Positions 1 to 35,222 of a stretch of 64,000 nt of DNA are shown in pieces. Position numbers and translations under genes: made by a program. The stretch is from positions 256,001-320,000 of the forward strand of contig CAWFSF010000006.1 of assembly GCA_963818475.1 (NCBI GenBank), written 5' to 3'. The DNA is from Nitrospirota bacterium. Lineage in GTDB: Bacteria > Nitrospirota > UBA9217. Positions within the stretch are counted from its first letter, which is position 1. The number at the start of each line of letters is the position of its first letter. The notes under the pieces were generated by a model that was given only the letters and a program-made list of their open reading frames with translations, had not been told where the DNA came from and ran no database searches.

Positions 1-266
1 GGCCATTTCACCATGCTCACGGTCTGCAGGCCGATGACGTCGACGATCATCTGAAAATATGCCCGGTCGTCGCGCAGATCGCCGTAGAGCTCCATGAGGG
101 GCATGAAGTCGACGATATGCAGGGGGTAGGGCGCATAGAACTCGGGATTGAAGTTCAGCCTGAGCCGAAGCGCGTGGCTGCCGCATCGCCGGAGCGGGAT
201 CATCAGCACCGGTCTCGGTCTGTTGCGTGATACGACTTCGCTCTGTTGCACGGTATGGTTCTCCAT
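1..266 (-). CDS. Sulfotransferase-family protein, 5' part (runs off the window start)
   Basis: Read by hand on the minus strand: MENHTVQQSEVVSRNRPRPVLMIPLRRCGSHALRLRLNFNPEF... RRCGSHALR resembles the PAPS-binding 5'-PSB loop. AAAGGAG RBS upstream. Divergent from cysQ/sat-cysC. Confidence 0.65.
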   Translation of the reverse strand, partial: MENHTVQQSEVVSRNRPRPVLMIPLRRCGSHALRLRLNFNPEFYAPYPLHIVDFMPLMELYGDLRDDRAYFQMIVDVIGLQTVSMVKW

Positions 267-4634: not shown

Positions 4635-6001
4635 ATGGGCGTCATCATGCAGGCATTCTACTGGGATTGCCCCAGGATCGAGGGGAAAGAATTCGAGTGG
4701 TGGAACCATGTAAAGGGTGAAATTCCCGCATTGCAGTCCGCGGGTTTCACCGCGCTCTGGCTGCCTCCCGCTTCCAAGGCGGCGAACGTCGGCGGCATGT
4801 CGATGGGGTACGACGTCTACGACTACTACGACCTGGGGAAATACCCGCAGAAGGCGGTCAGAAAAATAAACGACAAGGACGAGGTCAGGACCTGGTTCGG
4901 CTCGGAAGAGGACCTGCGGTCCCTGATCAAGACCGCGCACGCAAAGGAGCTGAAGGTCTACGCGGACCTGGTCCTGAACCATAACAACGGCGCGGACGCC
5001 GAAGAGCTCAACCCGATCACGAACAAGACGCGGTGGACGCGCTTCACGCCCCAGAGCAAACTCTTCACCCGCGACTGGACCTGCTTCAACCCCTCGCCGT
5101 ACCGCGAATGCGGACAACGCCGCCTTCGGCGACATGCCCGACCTCTGCCACATCAACCCGCGCGTTTCGACCGGCATCCTCGAACCACGCCAAGTGGATG
5201 ATCGAGGAGATCGGTTTCGACGGCTTCCGCTACGACTTCGTCAAGGGCTTCGGCGCCTGGATCGTCCGGGCGATCCACGACCGGAGCTACACGCGCGGCA
5301 ACAGACCGGTGGAGCTCTTCGGCGTGGGCGAATGCTGGGCCGGCGACGATTACATCGACGGCTGGCTCGATGAGGTCAACAGCTGGGCCGCGCAGCGGGT
5401 CGGCGCGTTCGATTTCCCGCTCCGCTACCGGCTGAAGGAGCTCTGCGATTCCTACGGCTTCAGCCTGCGGCGGCTCGTCGAGGGCGGCGTGCTCATGAAG
5501 GACCGTCCCTTCGAGGCCGTGACCTTCGTGGACAACCACGACTTTCGCGGCGACGACAACCCGGGGATCGTGAACGACAAGATGCTTGCCTACGCCTTCA
5601 TCCTGACCCACGAGGGCTATCCCTGCGTGTTCTGGCAGGACTATTACGCATGGGGCCTTGGTAAGGCAGGAGAGCAGAACGGCATAGCGGCCCTCGTAAG
5701 GGTGCATGAAGACCACGCAGGCGGCGAAACGTCCGTCCTCTACGTCGACGACAACCTCTACGTCATGCAGAGGAACGGCTTCGGAGCGCAGAAGGGATTG
5801 ATCTTTGTCCTGAACAACCGGGGGGATGCATGGAACGGGGCATGGGTCGGGACGCAATGGAAAAACACCCAATTCGTTCCCGTTGCATGGTGCGGACGCG
5901 ATGATGCCCGCATTCCGCAGGTGCAGCAGACCCAGGAGGACGGATCGGGAGAGTTTTCCGCGCCGCCGAGGGGATATGCGGTGTATGTGCCGCGGGAATA
6001 A
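4635..6001 (+). CDS. Alpha-amylase, GH13 (frameshift near 5110)
   Basis: MQAFYW, WLPP, GYDVYDYYDLG, DLVLNH, DGFRYDFVK, VGECW and FVDNHD are split over ORFs 4635-5201 and 5033-6001. Confidence 0.9.
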
Positions 6002-6167: not shown

Positions 6168-6209
6168 CGAGAGGGAATGACCGTCGGCTTTTCAAAGGAG
6201 GGAAACAAC

Positions 6210-8489
6210 GTGATAAAAAGAAAAACGCGTACGAAAAAAACTGAAGAGTCCTTGCCCGAAATTATCGTCAAGTTTAAAGAGGGAGGAGCGCTGGAGGAAC
6301 AAAGAGGAATGCTCAGGGCCGAGCACCTCTCTCTCGATAGGTTTCATAAGACTATAAAAACGGCAAAAGGTGCCCGGGTTCGGCGGAGTTTTCCGGGAGA
6401 GATCAAATTGCTGCATGAGATGCATGATAAGGCAAGCAGGAATCTCGGCCGCCCCATCCTACATTTGGACCTGTTTGTGCGAGTTCGACTTAGGCAAACC
6501 GTCGATGTTGAGGCGTTCATAAAAGCACTATCGGACGATCCCGAGGCGGAATATGCCTGTTTGGCGGGGGTGCCAGGACCTCCCCCTCAAACGCCGGATT
6601 ACAGCGGTCAACAGGATTATCAGGATCCGGCGCCTGATGGCATTGATGCGTCGTATGCCTGGTTTTTCCCCGGAGGGAACGGCGCCGGCATCCAGGTCTG
6701 CGATTGTGAGTACGGCTTCAATCAAAGTCACGAAGATTTGCCGGCCGTCGTTGTAGTGTCCAACCGGGCCAATGACCTGACGTCGTATGCCGATCACGGC
6801 ACGGCGGTGCTGGGGGAACTGGCCGCGCGATCCGACGGCAAAGGTGTGACCGGCATCGGTCATGGAGCATCATACCTGTTTGCATCCGAGACTGGAGGCC
6901 ACAGAACAGACTGTATAACCGATGCCGTAGCCGCGCTCCTCCCCGGAGACGTCTTGATTTTGGAAATGCAAACAGGGTTGCCCTATAAACCTGCAGAATA
7001 TGACCCCGATGTTCATGCGGCGGTCACTACGGCGGTCGGGTTGGGTATAGTCGTCGTTGCGGCGGCCGGCAACGGTTCCGTTGATCTCACGACAGCGGCA
7101 AATGCAAATGGAAAATATATTTGGGACCCGTCTAGCGCCGATTTCGATGATTCAGGCGCGGTAATCGTCGGAGCTGGCGGTTCGATTACTAATGCCGATC
7201 CCCACTCGAAGCTGTGGTTCTCCAACTACGGGGTCCGCGTAAACTGCCAAGGATGGGGACAAAATGTCGTCACCGCCGGTTACGGCGCCCTATACAATGG
7301 CGGCGCGAACGCAATGTATACGGACTCGTTTAACGGCACGTCGAGCGCTACCCCTATCGTGGCCGGCGCGGTGGCCTGCCTTCAAGGGGCCGCCAGGCAG
7401 GCTTTGGGCATTCCGCTGTCCTCAAGCACTGTTCGCAGCGTAATTTCAGATCCGGCGAACGGCACGCCGCAGGCGAGTTCGACCGCATACCCCGCCACCA
7501 CCTATCCGATCGGACCGTTGCCGGACCTTAGGCGAGCGCTGCGCGCGGCCGGTATTTATCCCGATATTTACTTGCGTGATAACGTCGCCGACACGGGATC
7601 CGAGCCGTATATGGGAGGCGTTCTTTGCTGCAGCCCTGACATTATTTCCCGAAAGGGTCCCGTTGCCGATCCGTCGGCCGATTTCGGTCCGGCTGCATGG
7701 GGAGACGCAAATCTCGGAGAAAACATTGAATTCGGCCAGGACAATTATGTGTATGTCAGAATGCATAACCGGGGCAATGCTCCTGACGACGTAACAATCG
7801 TTGTTTACTGGACGAACGCCAGCGGGTTCATATATCCTGCTACCTGGAACATACTCGGTACGTTAAATGTCAACAACGTGCTGCCGGGAGAACACAGGGT
7901 GGCCGGCCCGATCATTTGGCCGGCCGCGCAAGTCCCGCCGGTAGGGCATTATTGTATGATCGGCGTGGTAAACTCCGTGCGCGACCCGGTCGCTGTCCCC
8001 GGCACATTTGCATCGGTGTCCGAATACCTCGATTTCGTACGAAATCACAACAATATATGCTATCGCAACGCAGACGTCGTGGATGCAGTTCCAGGTGCTC
8101 CAGCGCCGCCCTATACGTTTTTTCTGCGGGGGCTGCCCGACCAAGCCGCGCATTTTCGTCTGGAAATTCGGCACCGGCTTCCCAAAGATGCGCAGGCCGC
8201 GGTAGAAGTCGGAAAGAGTTTGAGGGGATTCGAGCGAATGGAAGAAGTAAGGAAGAAAAATGCGTTGATCCGCTATTTGGCGCCGAAGACGCTCCTGCCG
8301 ATCAAGGAAGGCGTGCCGTTAATCATAGATGAAATACCGCTGAAGATGAAAGAGGAAGTCCCCGTAAAAATATATGTTGAAATGCCGAAGAACGCTCCGC
8401 GTGGAGATTATATGATCTATGCCGACCAGTATCTCCGGGAAAAGCATCTGGGCCGCGTGAATTATATACTTCGGGTAAGAAAAAACTAA
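6210..8489 (+). CDS. Subtilisin-like S8 serine peptidase with C-terminal beta-rich domain
   Basis: Catalytic D (DCEYG), H (DHGTAVLG), oxyanion N (AAAGNG) and S (FNGTSSATP). GGAGG RBS before GTG at 6210. No obvious signal peptide. Confidence 0.9.
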   Translation: MIKRKTRTKKTEESLPEIIVKFKEGGALEEQRGMLRAEHLSLDRFHKTIKTAKGARVRRSFPGEIKLLHEMHDKASRNLGRPILHLDLFVRVRLRQTVDVEAFIKALSDDPEAEYACLAGVPGPPPQTPDYSGQQDYQDPAPDGIDASYAWFFPGGNGAGIQVCDCEYGFNQSHEDLPAVVVVSNRANDLTSYADHGTAVLGELAARSDGKGVTGIGHGASYLFASETGGHRTDCITDAVAALLPGDVLILEMQTGLPYKPAEYDPDVHAAVTTAVGLGIVVVAAAGNGSVDLTTAANANGKYIWDPSSADFDDSGAVIVGAGGSITNADPHSKLWFSNYGVRVNCQGWGQNVVTAGYGALYNGGANAMYTDSFNGTSSATPIVAGAVACLQGAARQALGIPLSSSTVRSVISDPANGTPQASSTAYPATTYPIGPLPDLRRALRAAGIYPDIYLRDNVADTGSEPYMGGVLCCSPDIISRKGPVADPSADFGPAAWGDANLGENIEFGQDNYVYVRMHNRGNAPDDVTIVVYWTNASGFIYPATWNILGTLNVNNVLPGEHRVAGPIIWPAAQVPPVGHYCMIGVVNSVRDPVAVPGTFASVSEYLDFVRNHNNICYRNADVVDAVPGAPAPPYTFFLRGLPDQAAHFRLEIRHRLPKDAQAAVEVGKSLRGFERMEEVRKKNALIRYLAPKTLLPIKEGVPLIIDEIPLKMKEEVPVKIYVEMPKNAPRGDYMIYADQYLREKHLGRVNYILRVRKN

Positions 8490-8611: not shown

Positions 8612-8770
8612 TTCTGGACGATCATCTCTATATCATGCAGAGGAGAGGCCTCGGCGCACAGAAGGGATTTTGTCATGAACAACCGGGGGGACGCGTGGAA
8701 CGGGACATGGGTAGAGACGCAATGGAAAAACACGAAATTCGTTCCTGCTGCATGGGGTGGCCGCGATGCG
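8612..8770 (+). pseudogene. Diverged duplicate fragment of the alpha-amylase 3' region
   Basis: Aligns by eye with about 5742-5903 (ATGCAGAGG..GCAGAAGGGATT..TGAACAACCGGGGGGA..TGGAACGGG..ACGCAATGGAAAAACAC) with an indel. Confidence 0.85.
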
Positions 8771-10713: not shown

Positions 10714-10832
10714 TTGTATTCCTTCTCAATTTCCTAATGGCAGACAATGGTTTCTGAATGCCAAAAGTAAAGACCTGAGAGCTTGGGCTGGTTGGGCTCT
10801 CCTGTAGCTATATAAACATTAAGGACCTGACC

Positions 10833-12745
10833 GTTCGCAGTAACAACTGATTATCTCGCGGGTTCAAGTCCCGCCCAAGGAGTTGTCCGTACACCTTGGT
10901 AGCACGAGGGAGCGGCGTCTGAGCAATCAGAGGTCGTGAGTTCCCAAACGGCAAAGCTACAGGCCGCAGCGAAAGCGAACCTACACGTAGCCTCGTAACT
11001 TATTCGGAGATGCCGACCTTGTGGTCAAATGGGGAAGGCCGATGCGCGCTGATTCAGACAACGGAATCGATCTGTGCGATCTCCCGGGGTAGCAGGGGCG
11101 GCATGTAGCGGAAGATAAGCAGTCCAGTGCTGGAGACCCCATACAGTGATGTTAGAGGAACATCAACCGGTGCGTATAAGGAAACGAAAACGCACTGGGC
11201 TGTATCGGGAGTCGGAGGGGTCCATAGTATCGTTTGAAGGTATGGGACAACATAACCCTGCCCGAGAAAAGGGACCCTGCTTTGTTCACGCAACCGAAGG
11301 AGAGAGGATGAGGGGATTGCAGAGATGCTAACAACCCCAGATACAATCAGGACACTCCAGAGGAAGCTCTACCGTAAGGCCAAGCAAGAACCGGCCTACC
11401 GCTTTTACGCGCTCTACGACAAGATACACCGGGCCGACATCCTCAGTCACGCCTACCATCTTGTCAGGGCCAACAAAGGAAGCGCCGGCATCGACGGCGT
11501 CACCTTCGAGGCCATAGAGACCGGAGAAGGGGTAATCGCCTTTTTGGCGGAGCTGCAAGAAGCACTGAAGAGCAAGACCTATGCACCAAACCCTGTAAAG
11601 CGCGTCATGATCCCCAAAGGAGACGGCACAGAGCGTCCCTTGGGAATCCCGACCATTAGGGACAGGGTGGCCCAGATGGCCGTAAAACTGGTCATCGAAC
11701 CGATATTTGAAGCGGATTTTATAGACACCTCATACGGATTCAGACCCAAGAAGTCGGCCCATGATGCAATCGAAGACATATCGTATGCCCTTAACTGCGG
11801 TTATACGGAAGTCATCGACGCCGATGTGTCCAGGTACTTCGACACCATTCCCCATGCCAAACTCATGGCCGTGGTCGCCGAGCGCATCGTTGACAGTGCG
11901 ATTCTGCACATTATCCAGATGTGGCTCAAGGCCCCGGTTATGGAAGTGGACAAGGACGGAACGAAGCGCAACATCGGCGGCGGCAAGGCAAACACCAAAG
12001 GAACACCGCAGGGCGGTGTCATCTCGCCGCTCCTGGCCAATCTCTATCTGCACCTGTTAGATAGGATATGGCATAAGAAGAAGCTTCAGTATAGGCTCGA
12101 AGCGCGTCTTGTCCGGTATGCCGACGATTTTGTCGTGCTGTGCAGAAAGGGAACTGAGCAGCCGATGGCGGTTGTGCGCCGGGTGCTCGAACGACTGGGA
12201 CTTGTACTCAATGAGAACAAGACCCGCATGGTGAACGCCAAGCAAGAAGGCTTCAACTTCCTTGGATTTGAACTTCGTATGGGGAAAAGTCGGAGAACGG
12301 GCAACCTTTACCCCCTTATACAACCGTCACGAAAAGCCCTGAAGAAGATCAAAGACAGCGTTACCGCTCTTACACACAGGCGGATGACGCCGAAGCCGCT
12401 TACTATGATAATCGAAGATATCAATACCGCCCTCCGGGGCTGGGTCGGGTACTTTCATTACCGCAATAGCAGCAAGGCGTTCAATCGTCTCAAGTTTCAT
12501 GTGGAAGCGCGAGTGCGCACGCATCTGCGAAAGCGGCATAAGATCAAAAGCAGGGCAGCGGGGTTTACCAGGTTCACCAACAGGTCTTTGTACGAGAAGT
12601 ATGGGCTCTATAAAGTGCCGACGACAGCGGGCTGGCTGAAGGCGCATGCCTTGCGGTGAAGAACATCGGAAAGCCGTGTGCGGGAAAACTGCATGCACGG
12701 TTTGATGAGGGAGGGCTGGTCAATACGACCAGCTCTCTACTCTAC
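10833..12745 (+). mobile_element. Group II intron, copy 1 (1913 bp, no endonuclease domain, probably class F/g1-like)
   Basis: Boundaries set from identity among the three copies, with the shared TGACC before and C after assigned to the exons. 5' end GTTCGC; DV AAGCCGTGTGCGGGAAAACTGCATGCACGGTTT; DVI ending CTCTACTCTAC. Class assignment is inference from the RT N-terminus. Confidence 0.93.
11325..12659 (+). CDS. ltrA: Group II intron reverse transcriptase/maturase
   Basis: RPLGIPTIRDR, SYGFRP, GTPQGGVISPLLANLYL, YADD, domain X (GWVGYF); no HNH domain. Confidence 0.97.
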   Translation: MLTTPDTIRTLQRKLYRKAKQEPAYRFYALYDKIHRADILSHAYHLVRANKGSAGIDGVTFEAIETGEGVIAFLAELQEALKSKTYAPNPVKRVMIPKGDGTERPLGIPTIRDRVAQMAVKLVIEPIFEADFIDTSYGFRPKKSAHDAIEDISYALNCGYTEVIDADVSRYFDTIPHAKLMAVVAERIVDSAILHIIQMWLKAPVMEVDKDGTKRNIGGGKANTKGTPQGGVISPLLANLYLHLLDRIWHKKKLQYRLEARLVRYADDFVVLCRKGTEQPMAVVRRVLERLGLVLNENKTRMVNAKQEGFNFLGFELRMGKSRRTGNLYPLIQPSRKALKKIKDSVTALTHRRMTPKPLTMIIEDINTALRGWVGYFHYRNSSKAFNRLKFHVEARVRTHLRKRHKIKSRAAGFTRFTNRSLYEKYGLYKVPTTAGWLKAHALR

Positions 12746-12774
12746 CTAACAAGTCTTAAAAGCTTGTATCGAAG

Positions 12775-12894
12775 ATGGACGTTCTTGCAAAATTGGAGGA
12801 GATTAAGCTGGAAGTCGCGGCAAAAGCCAGCACTCAACGCCTTGCGAATGGAATTCAAAAATATGTAATTGACGGGCTTTGTAAGTTGCTGTAA
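12775..12894 (+). CDS. 39-codon ORF or gene fragment between introns 1 and 2
   Basis: MDVLAKLEEIKLEVAAKASTQRLANGIQKYVIDGLCKLL, translated by hand; no clear RBS. Confidence 0.3.
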   Translation: MDVLAKLEEIKLEVAAKASTQRLANGIQKYVIDGLCKLL

Positions 12895-12959
12895 GACGGC
12901 TACTAAGCTTCGAAACTTGACTTGATTTGGATCACAAATGGCAATATTCAAGTCTGACC

Positions 12960-14872
12960 GTTCGCAGTAACAACTGATTATCTCGCGGGTTCAAGTCCCG
13001 CCCAAGGAGTTGTCCGTACACCTTGGTAGCACGAGGGAGCGGCGTCTGAGCAATCAGAGGTCGTGAGTTCCCAAACGGCAAAGCTACAGGCCGCAGCGAA
13101 AGCGAACCTACACGTAGCCTCGTAACTTATTCGGAGATGCCGACCTTGTGGTCAAATGGGGAAGGCCGATGCGCGCTGATTCAGACAACGGAATCGATCT
13201 GTGCGATCTCCCGGGGTAGCAGGGGCGGCATGTAGCGGAAGATAAGCAGTCCAGTGCTGGAGACCCCATACAGTGATGTTAGAGGAACATCAACCGGTGC
13301 GTATAAGGAAACGAAAACGCACTGGGCTGTATCGGGAGTCGGAGGGGTCCATAGTATCGTTTGAAGGTATGGGACAACATAACCCTGCCCGAGAAAAGGG
13401 ACCCTGCTTTGTTCACGCAACCGAAGGAGAGAGGATGAGGGGATTGCAGAGATGCTAACAACCCCAGATACAATCAGGACACTCCAGAGGAAGCTCTACC
13501 GTAAGGCCAAGCAAGAACCGGCCTACCGCTTTTACGCGCTCTACGACAAGATACACCGGGCCGACATCCTCAGTCACGCCTACCATCTTGTCAGGGCCAA
13601 CAAAGGAAGCGCCGGCATCGACGGCGTCACCTTCGAGGCCATAGAGACCGGAGAAGGGGTAATCGCCTTTTTGGCGGAGCTGCAAGAAGCACTGAAGAGC
13701 AAGACCTATGCACCAAACCCTGTAAAGCGCGTCATGATCCCCAAAGGAGACGGCACAGAGCGTCCCTTGGGAATCCCGACCATTAGGGACAGGGTGGCCC
13801 AGATGGCCGTAAAACTGGTCATCGAACCGATATTTGAAGCGGATTTTATAGACACCTCATACGGATTCAGACCCAAGAAGTCGGCCCATGATGCAATCGA
13901 AGACATATCGTATGCCCTTAACTGCGGTTATACGGAAGTCATCGACGCCGATGTGTCCAGGTACTTCGACACCATTCCCCATGCCAAACTCATGGCCGTG
14001 GTCGCCGAGCGCATCGTTGACAGTGCGATTCTGCACATTATCCAGATGTGGCTCAAGGCCCCGGTTATGGAAGTGGACAAGGACGGAACGAAGCGCAACA
14101 TCGGCGGCGGCAAGGCAAACACCAAAGGAACACCGCAGGGCGGTGTCATCTCGCCGCTCCTGGCCAATCTCTATCTGCACCTGTTAGATAGGATATGGCA
14201 TAAGAAGAAGCTTCAGTATAGGCTCGAAGCGCGTCTTGTCCGGTATGCCGACGATTTTGTCGTGCTGTGCAGAAAGGGAACTGAGCAGCCGATGGCGGTT
14301 GTGCGCCGGGTGCTCGAACGACTGGGACTTGTACTCAATGAGAACAAGACCCGCATGGTGAACGCCAAGCAAGAAGGCTTCAACTTCCTTGGATTTGAAC
14401 TTCGTATGGGGAAAAGTCGGAGAACGGGCAACCTTTACCCCCTTATACAACCGTCACGAAAAGCCCTGAAGAAGATCAAAGACAGCGTTACCGCTCTTAC
14501 ACACAGGCGGATGACGCCGAAGCCGCTTACTATGATAATCGAAGATATCAATACCGCCCTCCGGGGCTGGGTCGGGTACTTTCATTACCGCAATAGCAGC
14601 AAGGCGTTCAATCGTCTCAAGTTTCATGTGGAAGCGCGAGTGCGCACGCATCTGCGAAAGCGGCATAAGATCAAAAGCAGGGCAGCGGGGTTTACCAGGT
14701 TCACCAACAGGTCTTTGTACGAGAAGTATGGGCTCTATAAAGTGCCGACGACAGCGGGCTGGCTGAAGGCGCATGCCTTGCGGTGAAGAACATCGGAAAG
14801 CCGTGTGCGGGAAAACTGCATGCACGGTTTGATGAGGGAGGGCTGGTCAATACGACCAGCTCTCTACTCTAC
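12960..14872 (+). mobile_element. Group II intron, copy 2
   Basis: Offset +2127 from copy 1 with an identical ORF track. Flanks TTCAAGTCTGACC | CCAAAG. Confidence 0.93.
13452..14786 (+). CDS. ltrA: Group II intron reverse transcriptase/maturase
   Basis: Protein identical to that of 11325-12659. Confidence 0.97.
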   Translation: MLTTPDTIRTLQRKLYRKAKQEPAYRFYALYDKIHRADILSHAYHLVRANKGSAGIDGVTFEAIETGEGVIAFLAELQEALKSKTYAPNPVKRVMIPKGDGTERPLGIPTIRDRVAQMAVKLVIEPIFEADFIDTSYGFRPKKSAHDAIEDISYALNCGYTEVIDADVSRYFDTIPHAKLMAVVAERIVDSAILHIIQMWLKAPVMEVDKDGTKRNIGGGKANTKGTPQGGVISPLLANLYLHLLDRIWHKKKLQYRLEARLVRYADDFVVLCRKGTEQPMAVVRRVLERLGLVLNENKTRMVNAKQEGFNFLGFELRMGKSRRTGNLYPLIQPSRKALKKIKDSVTALTHRRMTPKPLTMIIEDINTALRGWVGYFHYRNSSKAFNRLKFHVEARVRTHLRKRHKIKSRAAGFTRFTNRSLYEKYGLYKVPTTAGWLKAHALR

Positions 14873-15026
14873 CCAAAGGCACTCGCTGTAATGGCACGAA
14901 TTATCTTCCGTAACTGCGGCGTAAGGATAGAGGCGTTGGCTGGCTCTCAGAGTGGACATAACTTATATTTAGCAAGTGAGGGTGGGAGGGGGCGGGACGC
15001 CCCTGAAGAAAAACTAAGGAGGCTTT

Positions 15027-15725
15027 ATGGATACCCTGATCAACATATTGCTTCTGCTGGTGAGTTTTGCCGGTGCATTGACAGCCTTTACCGGCGATAC
15101 CTTAAACAAAAACGCGGCAACGGTGTATGGACGCATTACGCGGGTAGGGTGGTTTTCCATTTTACTGTTGCTCATTGCTTTCAACATAGGCATATGGAAA
15201 GAACTTCGTGAACAGGACAAAGGCAAGGTGCAGGAAGCCAAAGCAAAAGAGCAATATGAGCGGGCGATGCGTGCGGAACAACAGCTTGCGATTGCACAAG
15301 CGAAAATCGATGCATTAAAACCAGCCGTGGTAAAAGCCGTTTCAACCATGACCCAGGATATCCCGAAAGAATATGATGACGGCTTTATGAATTTGAATAG
15401 CCAGCCTGAAGCAGCGCTCATGTCGAATCGAAGCAAAGATACCCTGAAACTGTACGGAGGGGATGATTTCGAATATCACTGTTATTGCGGCAATGGATCT
15501 CTTGCAACGCCCGCATCCGTCAGCGGACTATATTTAAAGGTCGGTACGCGGGGCTATCCCCTGGAGTCCAATGGAGGGACATGGCGCATAGCCGGGCCCG
15601 CAGGTCAGGCACTGGAGGGCAGAATTATCAACCCTGGACGCGCTAAATGCGATATCAAGTATATCGTAAGGTCGACAGTTCGTACCCGGTCGAAGCAACA
15701 ATTGACTGACGCGCTGCAGGAATGA
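15027..15725 (+). CDS. Hypothetical membrane protein (two N-terminal TM helices, coiled coil, soluble domain)
   Basis: AAGGAGG RBS; 232-aa ORF lying between two array sites. Confidence 0.75.
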   Translation: MDTLINILLLLVSFAGALTAFTGDTLNKNAATVYGRITRVGWFSILLLLIAFNIGIWKELREQDKGKVQEAKAKEQYERAMRAEQQLAIAQAKIDALKPAVVKAVSTMTQDIPKEYDDGFMNLNSQPEAALMSNRSKDTLKLYGGDDFEYHCYCGNGSLATPASVSGLYLKVGTRGYPLESNGGTWRIAGPAGQALEGRIINPGRAKCDIKYIVRSTVRTRSKQQLTDALQE

Positions 15726-15746
15726 TTTTCGGGCCATGCCTGGAAA

Positions 15747-15793
15747 GTCAAATCTTCGATGTTGACAAGTATGTAACGAATGAAGATTTGACC
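15747..15793. repeat. Array site hairpin GTCAAATCTTC..TTGACA..TGTAAC..GAAGATTTGAC, target of intron copy 3
   Basis: Perfect 11-bp outer arms with an imperfect inner stem; the intron starts right after TGACC. Confidence 0.8.
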
Positions 15794-17706
15794 GTTCGCA
15801 GTAACAACTGATTATCTCGCGGGTTCAAGTCCCGCCCAAGGAGTTGTCCGTACACCTTGGTAGCACGAGGGAGCGGCGTCTGAGCAATCAGAGGTCGTGA
15901 GTTCCCAAACGGCAAAGCTACAGGCCGCAGCGAAAGCGAACCTACACGTAGCCTCGTAACTTATTCGGAGATGCCGACCTTGTGGTCAAATGGGGAAGGC
16001 CGATGCGCGCTGATTCAGACAACGGAATCGATCTGTGCGATCTCCCGGGGTAGCAGGGGCGGCATGTAGCGGAAGATAAGCAGTCCAGTGCTGGAGACCC
16101 CATACAGTGATGTTAGAGGAACATCAACCGGTGCGTATAAGGAAACGAAAACGCACTGGGCTGTATCGGGAGTCGGAGGGGTCCATAGTATCGTTTGAAG
16201 GTATGGGACAACATAACCCTGCCCGAGAAAAGGGACCCTGCTTTGTTCACGCAACCGAAGGAGAGAGGATGAGGGGATTGCAGAGATGCTAACAACCCCA
16301 GATACAATCAGGACACTCCAGAGGAAGCTCTACCGTAAGGCCAAGCAAGAACCGGCCTACCGCTTTTACGCGCTCTACGACAAGATACACCGGGCCGACA
16401 TCCTCAGTCACGCCTACCATCTTGTCAGGGCCAACAAAGGAAGCGCCGGCATCGACGGCGTCACCTTCGAGGCCATAGAGACCGGAGAAGGGGTAATCGC
16501 CTTTTTGGCGGAGCTGCAAGAAGCACTGAAGAGCAAGACCTATGCACCAAACCCTGTAAAGCGCGTCATGATCCCCAAAGGAGACGGCACAGAGCGTCCC
16601 TTGGGAATCCCGACCATTAGGGACAGGGTGGCCCAGATGGCCGTAAAACTGGTCATCGAACCGATATTTGAAGCGGATTTTATAGACACCTCATACGGAT
16701 TCAGACCCAAGAAGTCGGCCCATGATGCAATCGAAGACATATCGTATGCCCTTAACTGCGGTTATACGGAAGTCATCGACGCCGATGTGTCCAGGTACTT
16801 CGACACCATTCCCCATGCCAAACTCATGGCCGTGGTCGCCGAGCGCATCGTTGACAGTGCGATTCTGCACATTATCCAGATGTGGCTCAAGGCCCCGGTT
16901 ATGGAAGTGGACAAGGACGGAACGAAGCGCAACATCGGCGGCGGCAAGGCAAACACCAAAGGAACACCGCAGGGCGGTGTCATCTCGCCGCTCCTGGCCA
17001 ATCTCTATCTGCACCTGTTAGATAGGATATGGCATAAGAAGAAGCTTCAGTATAGGCTCGAAGCGCGTCTTGTCCGGTATGCCGACGATTTTGTCGTGCT
17101 GTGCAGAAAGGGAACTGAGCAGCCGATGGCGGTTGTGCGCCGGGTGCTCGAACGACTGGGACTTGTACTCAATGAGAACAAGACCCGCATGGTGAACGCC
17201 AAGCAAGAAGGCTTCAACTTCCTTGGATTTGAACTTCGTATGGGGAAAAGTCGGAGAACGGGCAACCTTTACCCCCTTATACAACCGTCACGAAAAGCCC
17301 TGAAGAAGATCAAAGACAGCGTTACCGCTCTTACACACAGGCGGATGACGCCGAAGCCGCTTACTATGATAATCGAAGATATCAATACCGCCCTCCGGGG
17401 CTGGGTCGGGTACTTTCATTACCGCAATAGCAGCAAGGCGTTCAATCGTCTCAAGTTTCATGTGGAAGCGCGAGTGCGCACGCATCTGCGAAAGCGGCAT
17501 AAGATCAAAAGCAGGGCAGCGGGGTTTACCAGGTTCACCAACAGGTCTTTGTACGAGAAGTATGGGCTCTATAAAGTGCCGACGACAGCGGGCTGGCTGA
17601 AGGCGCATGCCTTGCGGTGAAGAACATCGGAAAGCCGTGTGCGGGAAAACTGCATGCACGGTTTGATGAGGGAGGGCTGGTCAATACGACCAGCTCTCTA
17701 CTCTAC
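15794..17706 (+). mobile_element. Group II intron, copy 3
   Basis: Offset +4961 from copy 1. Flanks GAAGATTTGACC | CCCGTA. Confidence 0.93.
16286..17620 (+). CDS. ltrA: Group II intron reverse transcriptase/maturase
   Basis: Protein identical to the other two copies. Confidence 0.97.
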   Translation: MLTTPDTIRTLQRKLYRKAKQEPAYRFYALYDKIHRADILSHAYHLVRANKGSAGIDGVTFEAIETGEGVIAFLAELQEALKSKTYAPNPVKRVMIPKGDGTERPLGIPTIRDRVAQMAVKLVIEPIFEADFIDTSYGFRPKKSAHDAIEDISYALNCGYTEVIDADVSRYFDTIPHAKLMAVVAERIVDSAILHIIQMWLKAPVMEVDKDGTKRNIGGGKANTKGTPQGGVISPLLANLYLHLLDRIWHKKKLQYRLEARLVRYADDFVVLCRKGTEQPMAVVRRVLERLGLVLNENKTRMVNAKQEGFNFLGFELRMGKSRRTGNLYPLIQPSRKALKKIKDSVTALTHRRMTPKPLTMIIEDINTALRGWVGYFHYRNSSKAFNRLKFHVEARVRTHLRKRHKIKSRAAGFTRFTNRSLYEKYGLYKVPTTAGWLKAHALR

Positions 17707-17711
17707 CCCGT

Positions 17712-18023
17712 ATGTTTCACCCGTCTTCCTGGAAAGGTATACCATTGTCCCTTACTTTTAGCGGTACGTTGAACCTAAGTGTCGATGTTGTTCGTGGCAA
17801 TCCAGTGGATATTTTTTTAATAGATCAATCAGAGTTAGAAAATTATCAGAATCATAAACAGTTTAATCATTATACTAATTTCACGGCAGACAAAACAAAG
17901 GTTTACAAACGTTCAGCTCGTTTAGCAGAAGGTATTTATTATCTTGTCCTCCGTGATAATACTCTCGGCATTCTGTCTGCCTCAAGTAGCGATGTAAAAA
18001 TAATGGCACGATTAGAACCCTGA
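17712..18023 (+). pseudogene. Probably 5'-truncated gene for a beta-sandwich domain protein
   Basis: Starts 5 bp after the intron/site junction with no RBS; AT-rich coding-like sequence (VDIFLIDQSELENY...GIYYLVLRDN). Confidence 0.5.
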
Positions 18024-18139
18024 GGTCGTGAATAAAAATAAACGCCAAAATAAAAGACCTGACACTGAAAGGGTCGATTTCGGCAACTGGGTGAGAATTC
18101 CGCAATAAGCGTGATGTGCTTAGGTGGATGAAGAAATAA

Positions 18140-21264: not shown

Positions 21265-21783
21265 ATGGTGATCATCCGGCAGTGCAGGCAGAGCGATTTC
21301 GATGCAATGTATGTCATCATCAACGATGCCGCGCAGGCATACCGGGACGTCATTCCTGCTGATCGCTGGAACGAGCCCTATATGTCCCGCGAATACCTTC
21401 AGCATGAGATCGATGATGGCGTCGCATTCTGGGGATACGAGGAGAACGGCGAACTGATCGGCGTGATGGGCATCCAGGCTGTTCAGAACGTCACGCTCAT
21501 CCGTCATGCCTACGTGCGGACAGCAGATCGCGGCAAAGGCATCGGCGGCAAGCTGCTGTCGGCACTGAAACGGAAGACCAGCGGACCTACGCTGGTGGGC
21601 ACCTGGAAGGCCGCTGTCTGGGCAATCCGGTTCTACGAAAAGTACGGGTATCGGCTCGTGACCGAGCAACAGAAGGAACAGCTGCTCCGGAAGTACTGGA
21701 AGATCCCCGAACGGCAGGTGGAAACGTCGGTTGTTCTGGCGGACCGGACATGGTTCGAGATGGGTAGTGAGCGCCGGGAGTAA
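21265..21783 (+). CDS. GNAT family N-acetyltransferase
   Basis: RHAYV..DRGKGIGGKLL and AIRFYEKYGY. Confidence 0.9.
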   Translation: MVIIRQCRQSDFDAMYVIINDAAQAYRDVIPADRWNEPYMSREYLQHEIDDGVAFWGYEENGELIGVMGIQAVQNVTLIRHAYVRTADRGKGIGGKLLSALKRKTSGPTLVGTWKAAVWAIRFYEKYGYRLVTEQQKEQLLRKYWKIPERQVETSVVLADRTWFEMGSERRE

Positions 21784-21810
21784 CGCAACATAAGTAACAA
21801 CGAGTCGGTC

Positions 21811-21945
21811 TAAAGTCCCGACGACAGCGGGCTGGACGAAGGCGCATGCCTTGCGGCTGAAGAACATCGAAAGCTGTGTGCGGGAAAACCGCATGCACGG
21901 TTTGATGAGGGAGAGCTGGTCATTACGACCAGCTCTCTACTCTAC
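21811..21945 (+). mobile_element. Diverged 3'-end remnant (ORF end, DV, DVI) of a related group II intron
   Basis: Matches about 12611-12745 with several substitutions and indels; followed by CC, as in copies 2 and 3. Confidence 0.9.
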
Positions 21946-33443: not shown

Positions 33444-33638
33444 GACTATTGGGGTCAGACTTTAAAATTGACATTCTGGCTTTTCTCGGAGAGCTACGGA
33501 GATCTAGAGGGTCGGTCTGCTTTCTTACCATTCGGACTCTTTAGAAAATGGACTTAATCGGGATGGATACGCCGCACTATGAATCCTCGCCCACCAGGAA
33601 AGGACCGCTACAGTGTCCCTTGAATTCTGGCTCCTCTA
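33444..33638 (+). repeat. Segment duplicated at 34910-35130 (hairpin left arm GGGGTCA-N10-TTGACA plus the LysE leader and start)
   Basis: GACTATTGGGGTCAGACTTTAAAATTGACATTCTGGC and GAATCCTCGCCCACCAGGAAAGGA..TGTCCCTTGAATTCTGGCTCCTCTA occur in both copies. Confidence 0.9.
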
Positions 33639-34688: not shown

Positions 34689-35222
34689 AATAGCGCATCA
34701 GAACGCGGTTCTTTCGGATCGTCCTTTCCAAGTTCAGTTCTCAATAAAAATCCTTCCTTCTTCAAATTATTAGAACCGGGAACCATAGGGTCACGTCTTT
34801 TATTTTGGTGTTCGGAACATAGTGGCCGTCCAGGGCCGTCCAGGGTCTGACATGAATCTATAGTTGTTTCCTTCGCATATATCACAAATCGAGATACCCC
34901 ACACTAGGGACTATTGGGGTCAGACTTTAAAATTGACATTCTGGCTCTTCTCGGAGAGCTACTGCGATCGGACCCAATAGGGTCAGGGCCTTTGTTATGG
35001 TGTCGACCCCCAAAAAGCAGTAGTATGCCGTAACAGAAAATTGACTTTTATTGGGATGGATACCCCGCACTGTGAATCCTCGCCCACCAGGAAAGGATCG
35101 CTACCATGTCCCTTGAATTCTGGCTCCTCTAGACGGCGGGGTTCAGGGTCCGGGGTCCAGGGCATGGCGGACGTATGCCCATGATGAACCCGTAAGCCGC
35201 GATAAGGCGGGCCTCGCAGCTT

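Follow-up and report, generated by a model that had tools for sequence, protein, structure and literature searches.

Covarying EBS1 contacts and a minority of hairpin-borne insertion sites in a compact, endonuclease-lacking group II intron of a Nitrospirota bacterium

All bacterial lineages of group II introns except class C (IIC) are described as homing into long, sequence-defined sites (reviewed in PMC4424553; papers are cited here and below for the passages concerned). An association with hairpins is attributed to class C only, plus the g6, U1 and U2 introns in one survey, where Miura et al. place them directly after terminators (PMC8919778). Besides that survey, the only report of hairpin targeting by non-class-C introns found in our literature search is that of Sonbol and Siam (2021) on IIB introns (CL1, class E) lying by attC sites in integrons and CALINs (clusters of attC sites lacking integron integrases) of halophiles (PMC7923331). 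Here we analyze a 64,000-nucleotide stretch of DNA from a Nitrospirota bacterium (hereafter, the window; C6:256001-320000, i.e. contig CAWFSF010000006.1, in assembly GCA_963818475.1 of 4.66 Mb and 7 contigs), which contains three copies of one intron. It is an ordinary mobile group II intron with a compact ribozyme, a IIB-like full-length domain V and a reverse transcriptase (RT)/maturase without DNA endonuclease (En-minus). Its sites would be chosen mainly by two RNA-DNA pairings, that of the exon-binding site 1 (EBS1) loop with the six bases that end the 5' exon and that of EBS3 with the C at position +1 of the 3' exon.

Three 1913-bp stretches of the window are letter-identical (100%, by script comparison and repeat search):

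10833-12745, plus strand: group II intron copy 1, 1913 bp, with RF02005 and RF00029 matches, 5' end GUUCG and 3' end ...CUAC
12960-14872, plus strand: group II intron copy 2, equal to copy 1 by identity and Rfam matches
15794-17706, plus strand: group II intron copy 3, equal to copy 1 by identity and Rfam matches

The junctions of copies 1, 2 and 3 read GGACCTGACC/CT, AAGTCTGACC/CC and AGATTTGACC/CC (the slash marks the insertion point), the first 3'-exon letter being C at all three. Chance is ruled out because the copies are identical over 1913 bp and their flanks differ. A BLAST search of the genome returned six full-length copies and seven fragments. The full copies are 0-2 substitutions apart or show a 1-nt length change (the copy on contig C2, which is 1 nt longer and has a split open reading frame, ORF), and the ORF for their intron-encoded protein (IEP) is intact in five of the six. 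All six interrupt xGACC/C (CTGACC twice; TTGACC, GTGACC, CAGACC and GCGACC once each). The copy boundaries were fixed by empty sites, independently of the end consensus: an uninterrupted paralog of the copy-4 site at C6:878199 (...AAAGAAGTGACCCCAAT) keeps four C's, and the boundaries are therefore GACC/intron/CC. No empty allele of window site 1 or 2 was found among 31 related genomes. Three identical copies in 7 kb reflect a very recent local burst, and the intron is apparently still active.

The ribozyme and protein of each copy comprise the following parts (coordinates for copy 1):

11325-12659, plus strand: IEP of 444 aa, RT and maturase (X) without endonuclease domain; the same ORF at 13452-14786 and 16286-17620
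12671-12703, plus strand: domain V (D5) by RF00029 alignment, AGC triad at 12672-12674
12739, plus strand: candidate bulged branch-point A in domain VI (D6), six nt ahead of the final base of the intron, as suggested by the RF00029 alignment and by reading the sequence

Every copy gives a full-length match (1-225) to RF02005 (group-II-D1D4-6) at 66.1 bits (cut-off 49; homologous introns reach 73.7-80.4 bits) and a match to RF00029 (D5/D6) at 54.2 bits (cut-off 40). Without its ORF the ribozyme measures 578 nt (1913 - 1335). The 34-nt D5 consensus is covered from end to end with a single gap, i.e. D5 is full length, with an AGC triad, and the D6 stem is long in the RF00029 alignment. The 3' end, AC, fits the AY consensus, while the 5' end in the family is GUUCG or GUACG, not the consensus GUGYG. 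The IEP contains the Pfam domains RVT_1 (1.5e-38) and GIIM (3.8e-16) and nothing else, scores 396.8 bits on TIGR04416 (cut-off 300) and has a YADD motif, read from the sequence. With D5/D6, D1-D4, an RT and maturase encoded in D4 and EBS1 in the Id3 loop (see below), the element is a mobile group II intron. Many homologs (L009, L011, L015, L021-L023, L043, L067, L072, L076 and others) carry a conserved ~75-nt insertion in D6 (...GGCTATTTAGGCACCGTCAGACGAAAGGGACGG...), and a second homolog group has a different D6 extension; the window intron has neither.

The intron RNA is not class C, because its D5 is full length with AGC, its EBS1 has six bases and its ribozyme 578 nt. Introns of class C have a short D5, with a CGC triad in the solved IIC intron. 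What our intron shares with class C and IIC-attC introns is an IEP without endonuclease, the lack of a detectable EBS2-IBS2 pairing (IBS, intron-binding site), a single-base IBS3 and copies dispersed in intergenic DNA (PMC4424553, PMC12584367), as well as a DNA stem-loop in the 5' exon, here at a significant share of sites. It differs in that its EBS1 consists of six covarying bases, whereas the IIC pairing is truncated (3-4 bp), class C being described as lacking part of EBS1 (PMC3753933), in the larger ribozyme (about 410 nt in IIC), in the full-length AGC D5 and RF02005 as the best Rfam model, and in that only ~18% of its sites have a hairpin, with IBS1 within the stem. The best Protein Data Bank matches to the IEP are solved IIC RTs, which match weakly (1.2e-51, 179 bits). 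IEPs matching at ~400 bits and 49-50% identity are encoded by introns on rhizobial plasmids and on plasmid 1 of Nitrobacter hamburgensis X14, and these introns are RF02003-type and non-IIC.

As to the remaining classes (names from PMC3552965, PMC3753933, PMC8919778, PMC5894124 and PMC3522654), the intron was set against them by description only, and on that basis its size, lack of endonuclease, long D6 and host taxa would fit the class F/g-group assemblage (PMC3552965, PMC3753933). Introns of class E, class F (g2-g5), g6 and U1/U2 likewise have ribozymes of 450-700 nt, no endonuclease, a long D6, a branch A six nt from the 3' splice site and an AC end (PMC3753933), and they overlap in taxa (Geobacter, Pelobacter, Betaproteobacteria; PMC3552965). 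On the other hand, a clear covarying EBS2-IBS2 pairing is described for IIE/IIF (PMC3753933), and we found none here. RmInt2 of Sinorhizobium meliloti has a similar palindrome logic (both ends of the copy-3 palindrome read ...TTGACC), but it belongs to class D, a different RNA type, and S. meliloti intron IEPs are only 32-35% identical to ours. Among the introns of that species, one on pSymB is RF02005-type (146.8 bits, AGC D5) and an RmInt1-sized one (L108, 419 aa) matches RF01999; these two matches rule out an alphabetical mapping of the Rfam models D1D4-1..7 to classes A-F. The introns of Sonbol and Siam are also non-class-C, directly after a hairpin-forming site and in gene-array orientation (PMC7923331). 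Our locus, unlike theirs, has no integrase and no recognisable attC, offers documented EBS1 covariation and empty sites, and holds full copies where their class E examples are 5'-truncated fragments (PMC7923331).

The pairing elements of the window copies are as follows:

11012-11039, plus strand: Id3 stem-loop with EBS1 (RF02005 alignment, fold, compensatory stem changes)
11023-11028, plus strand: EBS1 GGUCAA, intron nt 191-196; also at 13150-13155 and 15984-15989
10827-10832, plus strand: IBS1 of copy 1, CTGACC, 5/6 with EBS1; IBS3 is the C at 12746
12954-12959, plus strand: IBS1 of copy 2, CTGACC, 5/6 with EBS1; IBS3 is the C at 14873
15788-15793, plus strand: IBS1 of copy 3, TTGACC, 6/6 with EBS1; IBS3 is the C at 17707

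The segment GTGGTCAAAT is located at 11021-11030. Its GGUCAA falls inside the loop of the RF02005-modelled hairpin (<<<--<<<<_________>>>>--->>>) and, when 10985-11095 is folded at minimum energy, makes up the 6-nt terminal loop; two compensatory stem changes, in homologs L040 and L052, back the hairpin. Further evidence came from relatives. A scan of species-representative genomes revealed at least 187 stretches encoding IEP relatives, the best 80 of which were kept (62-97% identical; 5' end placeable in 65; hosts among these 80 are Nitrospirota, Desulfuromonadales/Geobacter, Syntrophales, and Beta- and Gammaproteobacteria). The homologous-intron sites represent at least six EBS1 types, and loop and exon vary in concert (GGUCAG/CUGACC, GGACAG/CUGUCC, GGACGU/ACGUCC, GUAGCG/CGCUAC, GCUCCC/GGGAGU, GGAUGA/UCGUCC). 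Over 62 homolog sites the loop matches the last six exon bases at 6/6 in 41, at 5/6 in 19 and at fewer in 2. Intron nt 191-196 pair with exon positions -6..-1 in 93% of cells (median for other positions, 40%), and a perfect complement lies in the EBS1 bin in 40 of 61 introns, while 20 permutations give at most 25. This covariation makes the EBS1 call solid.

Concerning the other DETERMINANTS, position +1 of the 3' exon is C in 50 of 52 homolog sites, which implies an invariant EBS3. Two candidates for its position, G260 (which becomes A in L079, where +1 is T) and G269 (which becomes U in L069, where +1 is A), change in one event each and in different columns, and the position is therefore left uncalled. 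For EBS2, pairing with -7..-14 stayed within permutation level for every segment of intron nt 1-300, whether compared by column or by sequence. A 13-nt bulge 5' of Id3 was rejected as it shows no covariation with -7..-12, and so was the conserved GUUYC at intron nt 108, which pairs with AGRC only via G-U and is invariant though targets differ. Overall, these results bear out much of the original prediction: the three identical introns with differing flanks and the junctions quoted for them (script comparison and reading of the sequence), GGTCAA in the d3 loop of domain I (RF02005 hairpin and fold), its pairing with (U/C)UGACC, perfect only at copy 3 (homolog covariation), the C opening every 3' exon in the window, the En-minus protein and the non-class-C RNA. 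The flanks of the additional genomic copies, xGACC/C throughout, likewise show no insertion at an unrelated sequence.

Copy 3 occupies a distinctive site:

15747-15792, no strand assigned: palindromic element of ~46 nt, 11-12-bp stem and 22-24-nt loop (depending on the method), z = -5.91; its 3' end is the copy-3 insertion site

This palindrome (GTCAAATCTT-N-AAGATTTGAC) is present in 4 of the 31 related genomes as five elements. Three are occupied (the single one of the source genome, G000, and both of G002), and two are uninterrupted and read ...GATTTGACC^C (one in G004, empty on both strands, and one in G014). The outer 3' end of the palindrome (TTGACC/C, 6/6) is probably the cognate homing site, and the other five copies, including window copies 1 and 2, look like ectopic retrotranspositions into 4-5/6 matches. 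All six copies lie on the G-rich strand (local GC skew +0.034 to +0.041), which fits a route in which the intron would reverse-splice into the lagging-strand template, presumably at the replication fork, and use nascent DNA as primer. Such lagging-strand reverse splicing with nascent-DNA priming is established for other En-minus introns. As the palindrome has the site on both strands, one site copy would always be on the lagging-strand template, an argument made before for RmInt2 (PMC5894124).

DNA folds at the 5' junctions of window copies 1, 2 and 3 gave z values of +1.24, -1.18 and -5.91, i.e. a hairpin at one of the three sites, that of copy 3. Genome-wide, copies 3, 4 and 6 (3/6) lie at the 3' base of 12-13-bp stems with 22-24-nt loops, a terminator holds copy 5 in its 5' arm, copy 1 is in a weak loop, and copy 2 has no hairpin. 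In the family, a perfect stem of at least 10 bp ends at -7..0 in 11 of 63 sites, compared with 22/1500 at random positions and 32/2084 at TGACC/C sites of the genome. Minimum-free-energy z values below -3 were obtained for 12 of 65 5' exons versus 4 of 215 windows 150-600 nt upstream, and for 0/71, 0/69 and 3/67 windows of the 3' flank (3/207 in total); nine of the 12 stems of at least 11 bp end between -9 and +8. The enrichment of hairpins in 5' exons is thus real and one-sided. About four fifths of family sites are without notable structure (a hairpin is found at ~18%). A hairpin is not needed for insertion, and the lineage specialises in hairpins as a minority habit, which is significant and not obligatory. 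Where there is a hairpin, IBS1 itself makes up the stem's foot. Upstream occurrence of the IBS1 reverse complement (10/63 versus a permutation mean of 5.7 and maximum of 12) was rejected as a signal because it is not significant and is confounded by shared IBS1.

Taken as a whole, a pairing-guided En-minus intron with homing and ectopic copies and a recent burst is the reading that we consider likely. Several observations weigh against it. Strong 5'-exon hairpins are ~10x commoner than in controls, which a pure pairing model does not predict. The genome holds 2084 TGACC/C and 1034 YTGACC/C sites, and pairing alone is therefore too weak for site choice. Twenty-three sites ending in TGACC have AAGRC at -11..-7 in common, for which no matching RNA segment was found (the same sites also have C at +2). 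Seven perfect hairpins with a GTGACC/C end in the genome are all unoccupied, and so are seven insertion-sequence-like repeat ends AAAGTC(T/A)GACC/CCAA, two of them in the window at ~33.45 and ~34.92 kb, minus strand. The six copies correspond to some three independent loci, which makes the strand bias weak evidence. Finally, no public run contained half of the sampled words from the region, and the three-copy arrangement is that of the assembly. The latter point bears on an alternative that we regard as barely credible, an assembly artefact in which one repeat was misplaced three times. Perfect identity over 1913 bp three times in 7 kb is indeed the repeat type that assemblers mishandle, and the spacers are covered by none of the public runs found (contigs of runs X1, X2, X15 and X4 cover intron parts only). 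However, the flanks are unique to each copy and offer a plausible IBS1 and IBS3 on either side, the spacers (214 and 921 bp) are unique sequence with one ORF each, the usual error would be collapse rather than expansion, and three more copies elsewhere obey the same junction rule.

The hairpins invite an alternative that appears rather unlikely to us, namely that the lineage reads the DNA stem-loop as a structure, as class C does, in place of the missing IBS2: the ribonucleoprotein would dock on a single-stranded-DNA hairpin and insert at its 3' base, a convergent second origin. The excess of stems at -7..0 over both controls (11/63), the structured 5' exons (12/65 against 4/215 upstream and 3/207 in 3' flanks), the 9 of 12 stems ending at -9 to +8, the failure to find EBS2 and the occupancy of three of five palindromic elements argue for it. 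The unstructured four fifths of sites (window copies 1 and 2 included), the seven empty GTGACC/C hairpins and, by eye, the placement of copy 5 in the 5' arm of a terminator and of copy 1 in a loop argue against it. Moreover, IBS1 would have to melt, because in the stem it is paired to a DNA copy of EBS1, whereas in class C IBS1 comes after the stem (PMC1702495, PMC12584367), and a palindrome with the site on both strands would be favoured without any reading of structure (cf. the RmInt2/ISRm17 inverted repeats, PMC5894124). We put forward only tentatively the broader notion that a widespread En-minus lineage with IIB-type catalytic domains lost EBS2 and evolved insertion at the 3' base of hairpins and palindromes independently of class C, the six-base IBS1 being the stem foot and the 5' arm a DNA mimic of EBS1. 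Of the convergent hairpin specialisation advanced in the original prediction, the ~tenfold enrichment in the family stands, but the data do not require the specialisation itself; copy 3 does sit at a palindrome that is empty in related genomes, but copies 1 and 2 are unstructured. Its further view of the window as an array of hairpin sites for homing, with the intron as an independent mark of a site family, is not supported. The corresponding alternative, that the junction motif is a host site family forming the cassette boundaries of an integron-like array and that the introns only report this array, is very unlikely. It would account for the short unrelated genes on one strand and the lower G+C of the region, and for the recurrence (95% identity) of the ORF 17712-18023 and a ~70-nt element in another context in a same-genus genome, G003, with the right-hand boundary at AAAGACCTGACAC; IIB introns beside attC sites have also been reported (PMC7923331). 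Yet the best TIGR02249 (integron integrase) match, at 105.2 bits, falls short of the cut-off of 265, inspection of the junctions by eye revealed no attC-type R''/R' motifs (no attC model was run), no repeated hairpin family was found in 4-25.5 kb of the window, where one of three insertion sites folds, and only three occurrences of AAGACCTGAC, one mismatch being allowed, fall within 10-24 kb. The conserved junction letters are IBS1 plus IBS3, selected by the intron, and they change with EBS1 in other genomes; hence they are not an independent mark of a host site family, and TGACC/C alone is found at the 2084 genomic positions mentioned above.

The surroundings of the copies may hold traces of an older intron and of rearrangements. 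One further intron piece is found in the window:

21811-21945, plus strand: 135-nt 3' fragment (ORF end, D5, D6) of an older related intron, 93% identical, then C

The fourth RF00029 match of the window (21869-21945) belongs to this fragment. It is preceded by an 18-mer that is the 3' flank of a GNAT gene at 21265-21783 (18-mer and fragment together, 21785-21945), and 631 kb away the same 18-mer precedes a 96-nt 5' fragment of a related intron of the ACGTCC IBS1 type (C6:908932-909048); apparently, a rearrangement divided an older copy of the intron. The 103-aa ORF after copy 3 (17712-18023) is a 5'-truncated form of a 161-aa ORF of G003 (L093 1317-1802), which has an N-terminal hydrophobic stretch and directly follows a GNAT gene there. 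Because this homology begins ~22 nt past the intron end, the intron and the palindrome lie at a rearrangement boundary. The ~70-nt element (...CCCTGAGGTCGTGAATAAAA...AAAAGACCTGACACTGAAAGGGTCG) that follows the 103-aa ORF (about 18010-18080; in L093 about 1790-1860 and 2010-2080) occurs two to three times in G003, holds a near-consensus unoccupied intron target and looks like a small repeated intergenic element. In the 214-bp spacer (12746-12959) a 31-codon ORF was read by eye, and stretches 78-83% similar to the spacer occur in G005, in G012 and at C5:764327-764466 of the source genome.

Other repeats were noted in the same genome. The repeat end at 33444-33504 and again at 34909-34969 (as read from the minus strand; the opposite strand gives ...GAATGTCAATT(T/C)TAAAGTC(T/A)GACCCCAAT, outer end GGGGTCAG...) has seven copies, five of them outside the window and none with an intron; the copy-2 site resembles it. 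The repeat end is reminiscent of Tn3-family terminal repeats. A palindrome family GTCACCTTTCTT-N8-AAGAAAGGTGAC with conserved flank CCAAAGAAGGGC occupies nine loci (e.g. C6:749191, C6:1929229 and C5:383298, outside the window). The segments 5747-5903 and 8617-8768, 81-87% alike and 2.87 kb apart, flank a subtilase-like gene (6177-8489), and each is adjoined, before or after, by GGTCGA(C/G)AAGTGACCCTAAAT. Upstream of the window, a tRNA-like gene (apparent Glu anticodon, by eye) lies at C6:233466, and after it its 3' ~47 nt recur as two direct repeats (C6:237595 and C6:241249, spacings of 4.1 and 3.7 kb), with intron copy 5 in a hairpin right after the last repeat; such spaced repeats suggest tandem integrated islands. 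ARAGORN found no tRNA in C6:238000-246000. Copy 6 (L002, C2:830000-842000) has two HNH-domain genes on one side and a DUF3375/DUF4194 pair on the other, a context that we take to be Wadjet-like.

In this lineage, for which species-representative genomes yielded at least 187 relatives, a full-length AGC domain V and a six-base EBS1 occur together with no detectable EBS2 and a ~tenfold excess of hairpins in 5' exons. Should the hairpin be read as a structure, the lineage would show relaxed, structure-aided targeting arising from a IIB-like ancestor, and engineering would gain a compact En-minus intron whose targeting rules are simple; the broader notion, if true, would mean that structure-assisted targeting arose a second time, with the lineage possibly standing midway from the homing of IIB to the terminator targeting of IIC. 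Should the hairpin not be read, the intron is still a clean case of an apparently active burst with natural empty sites, and it shows introns at rearrangement breakpoints.

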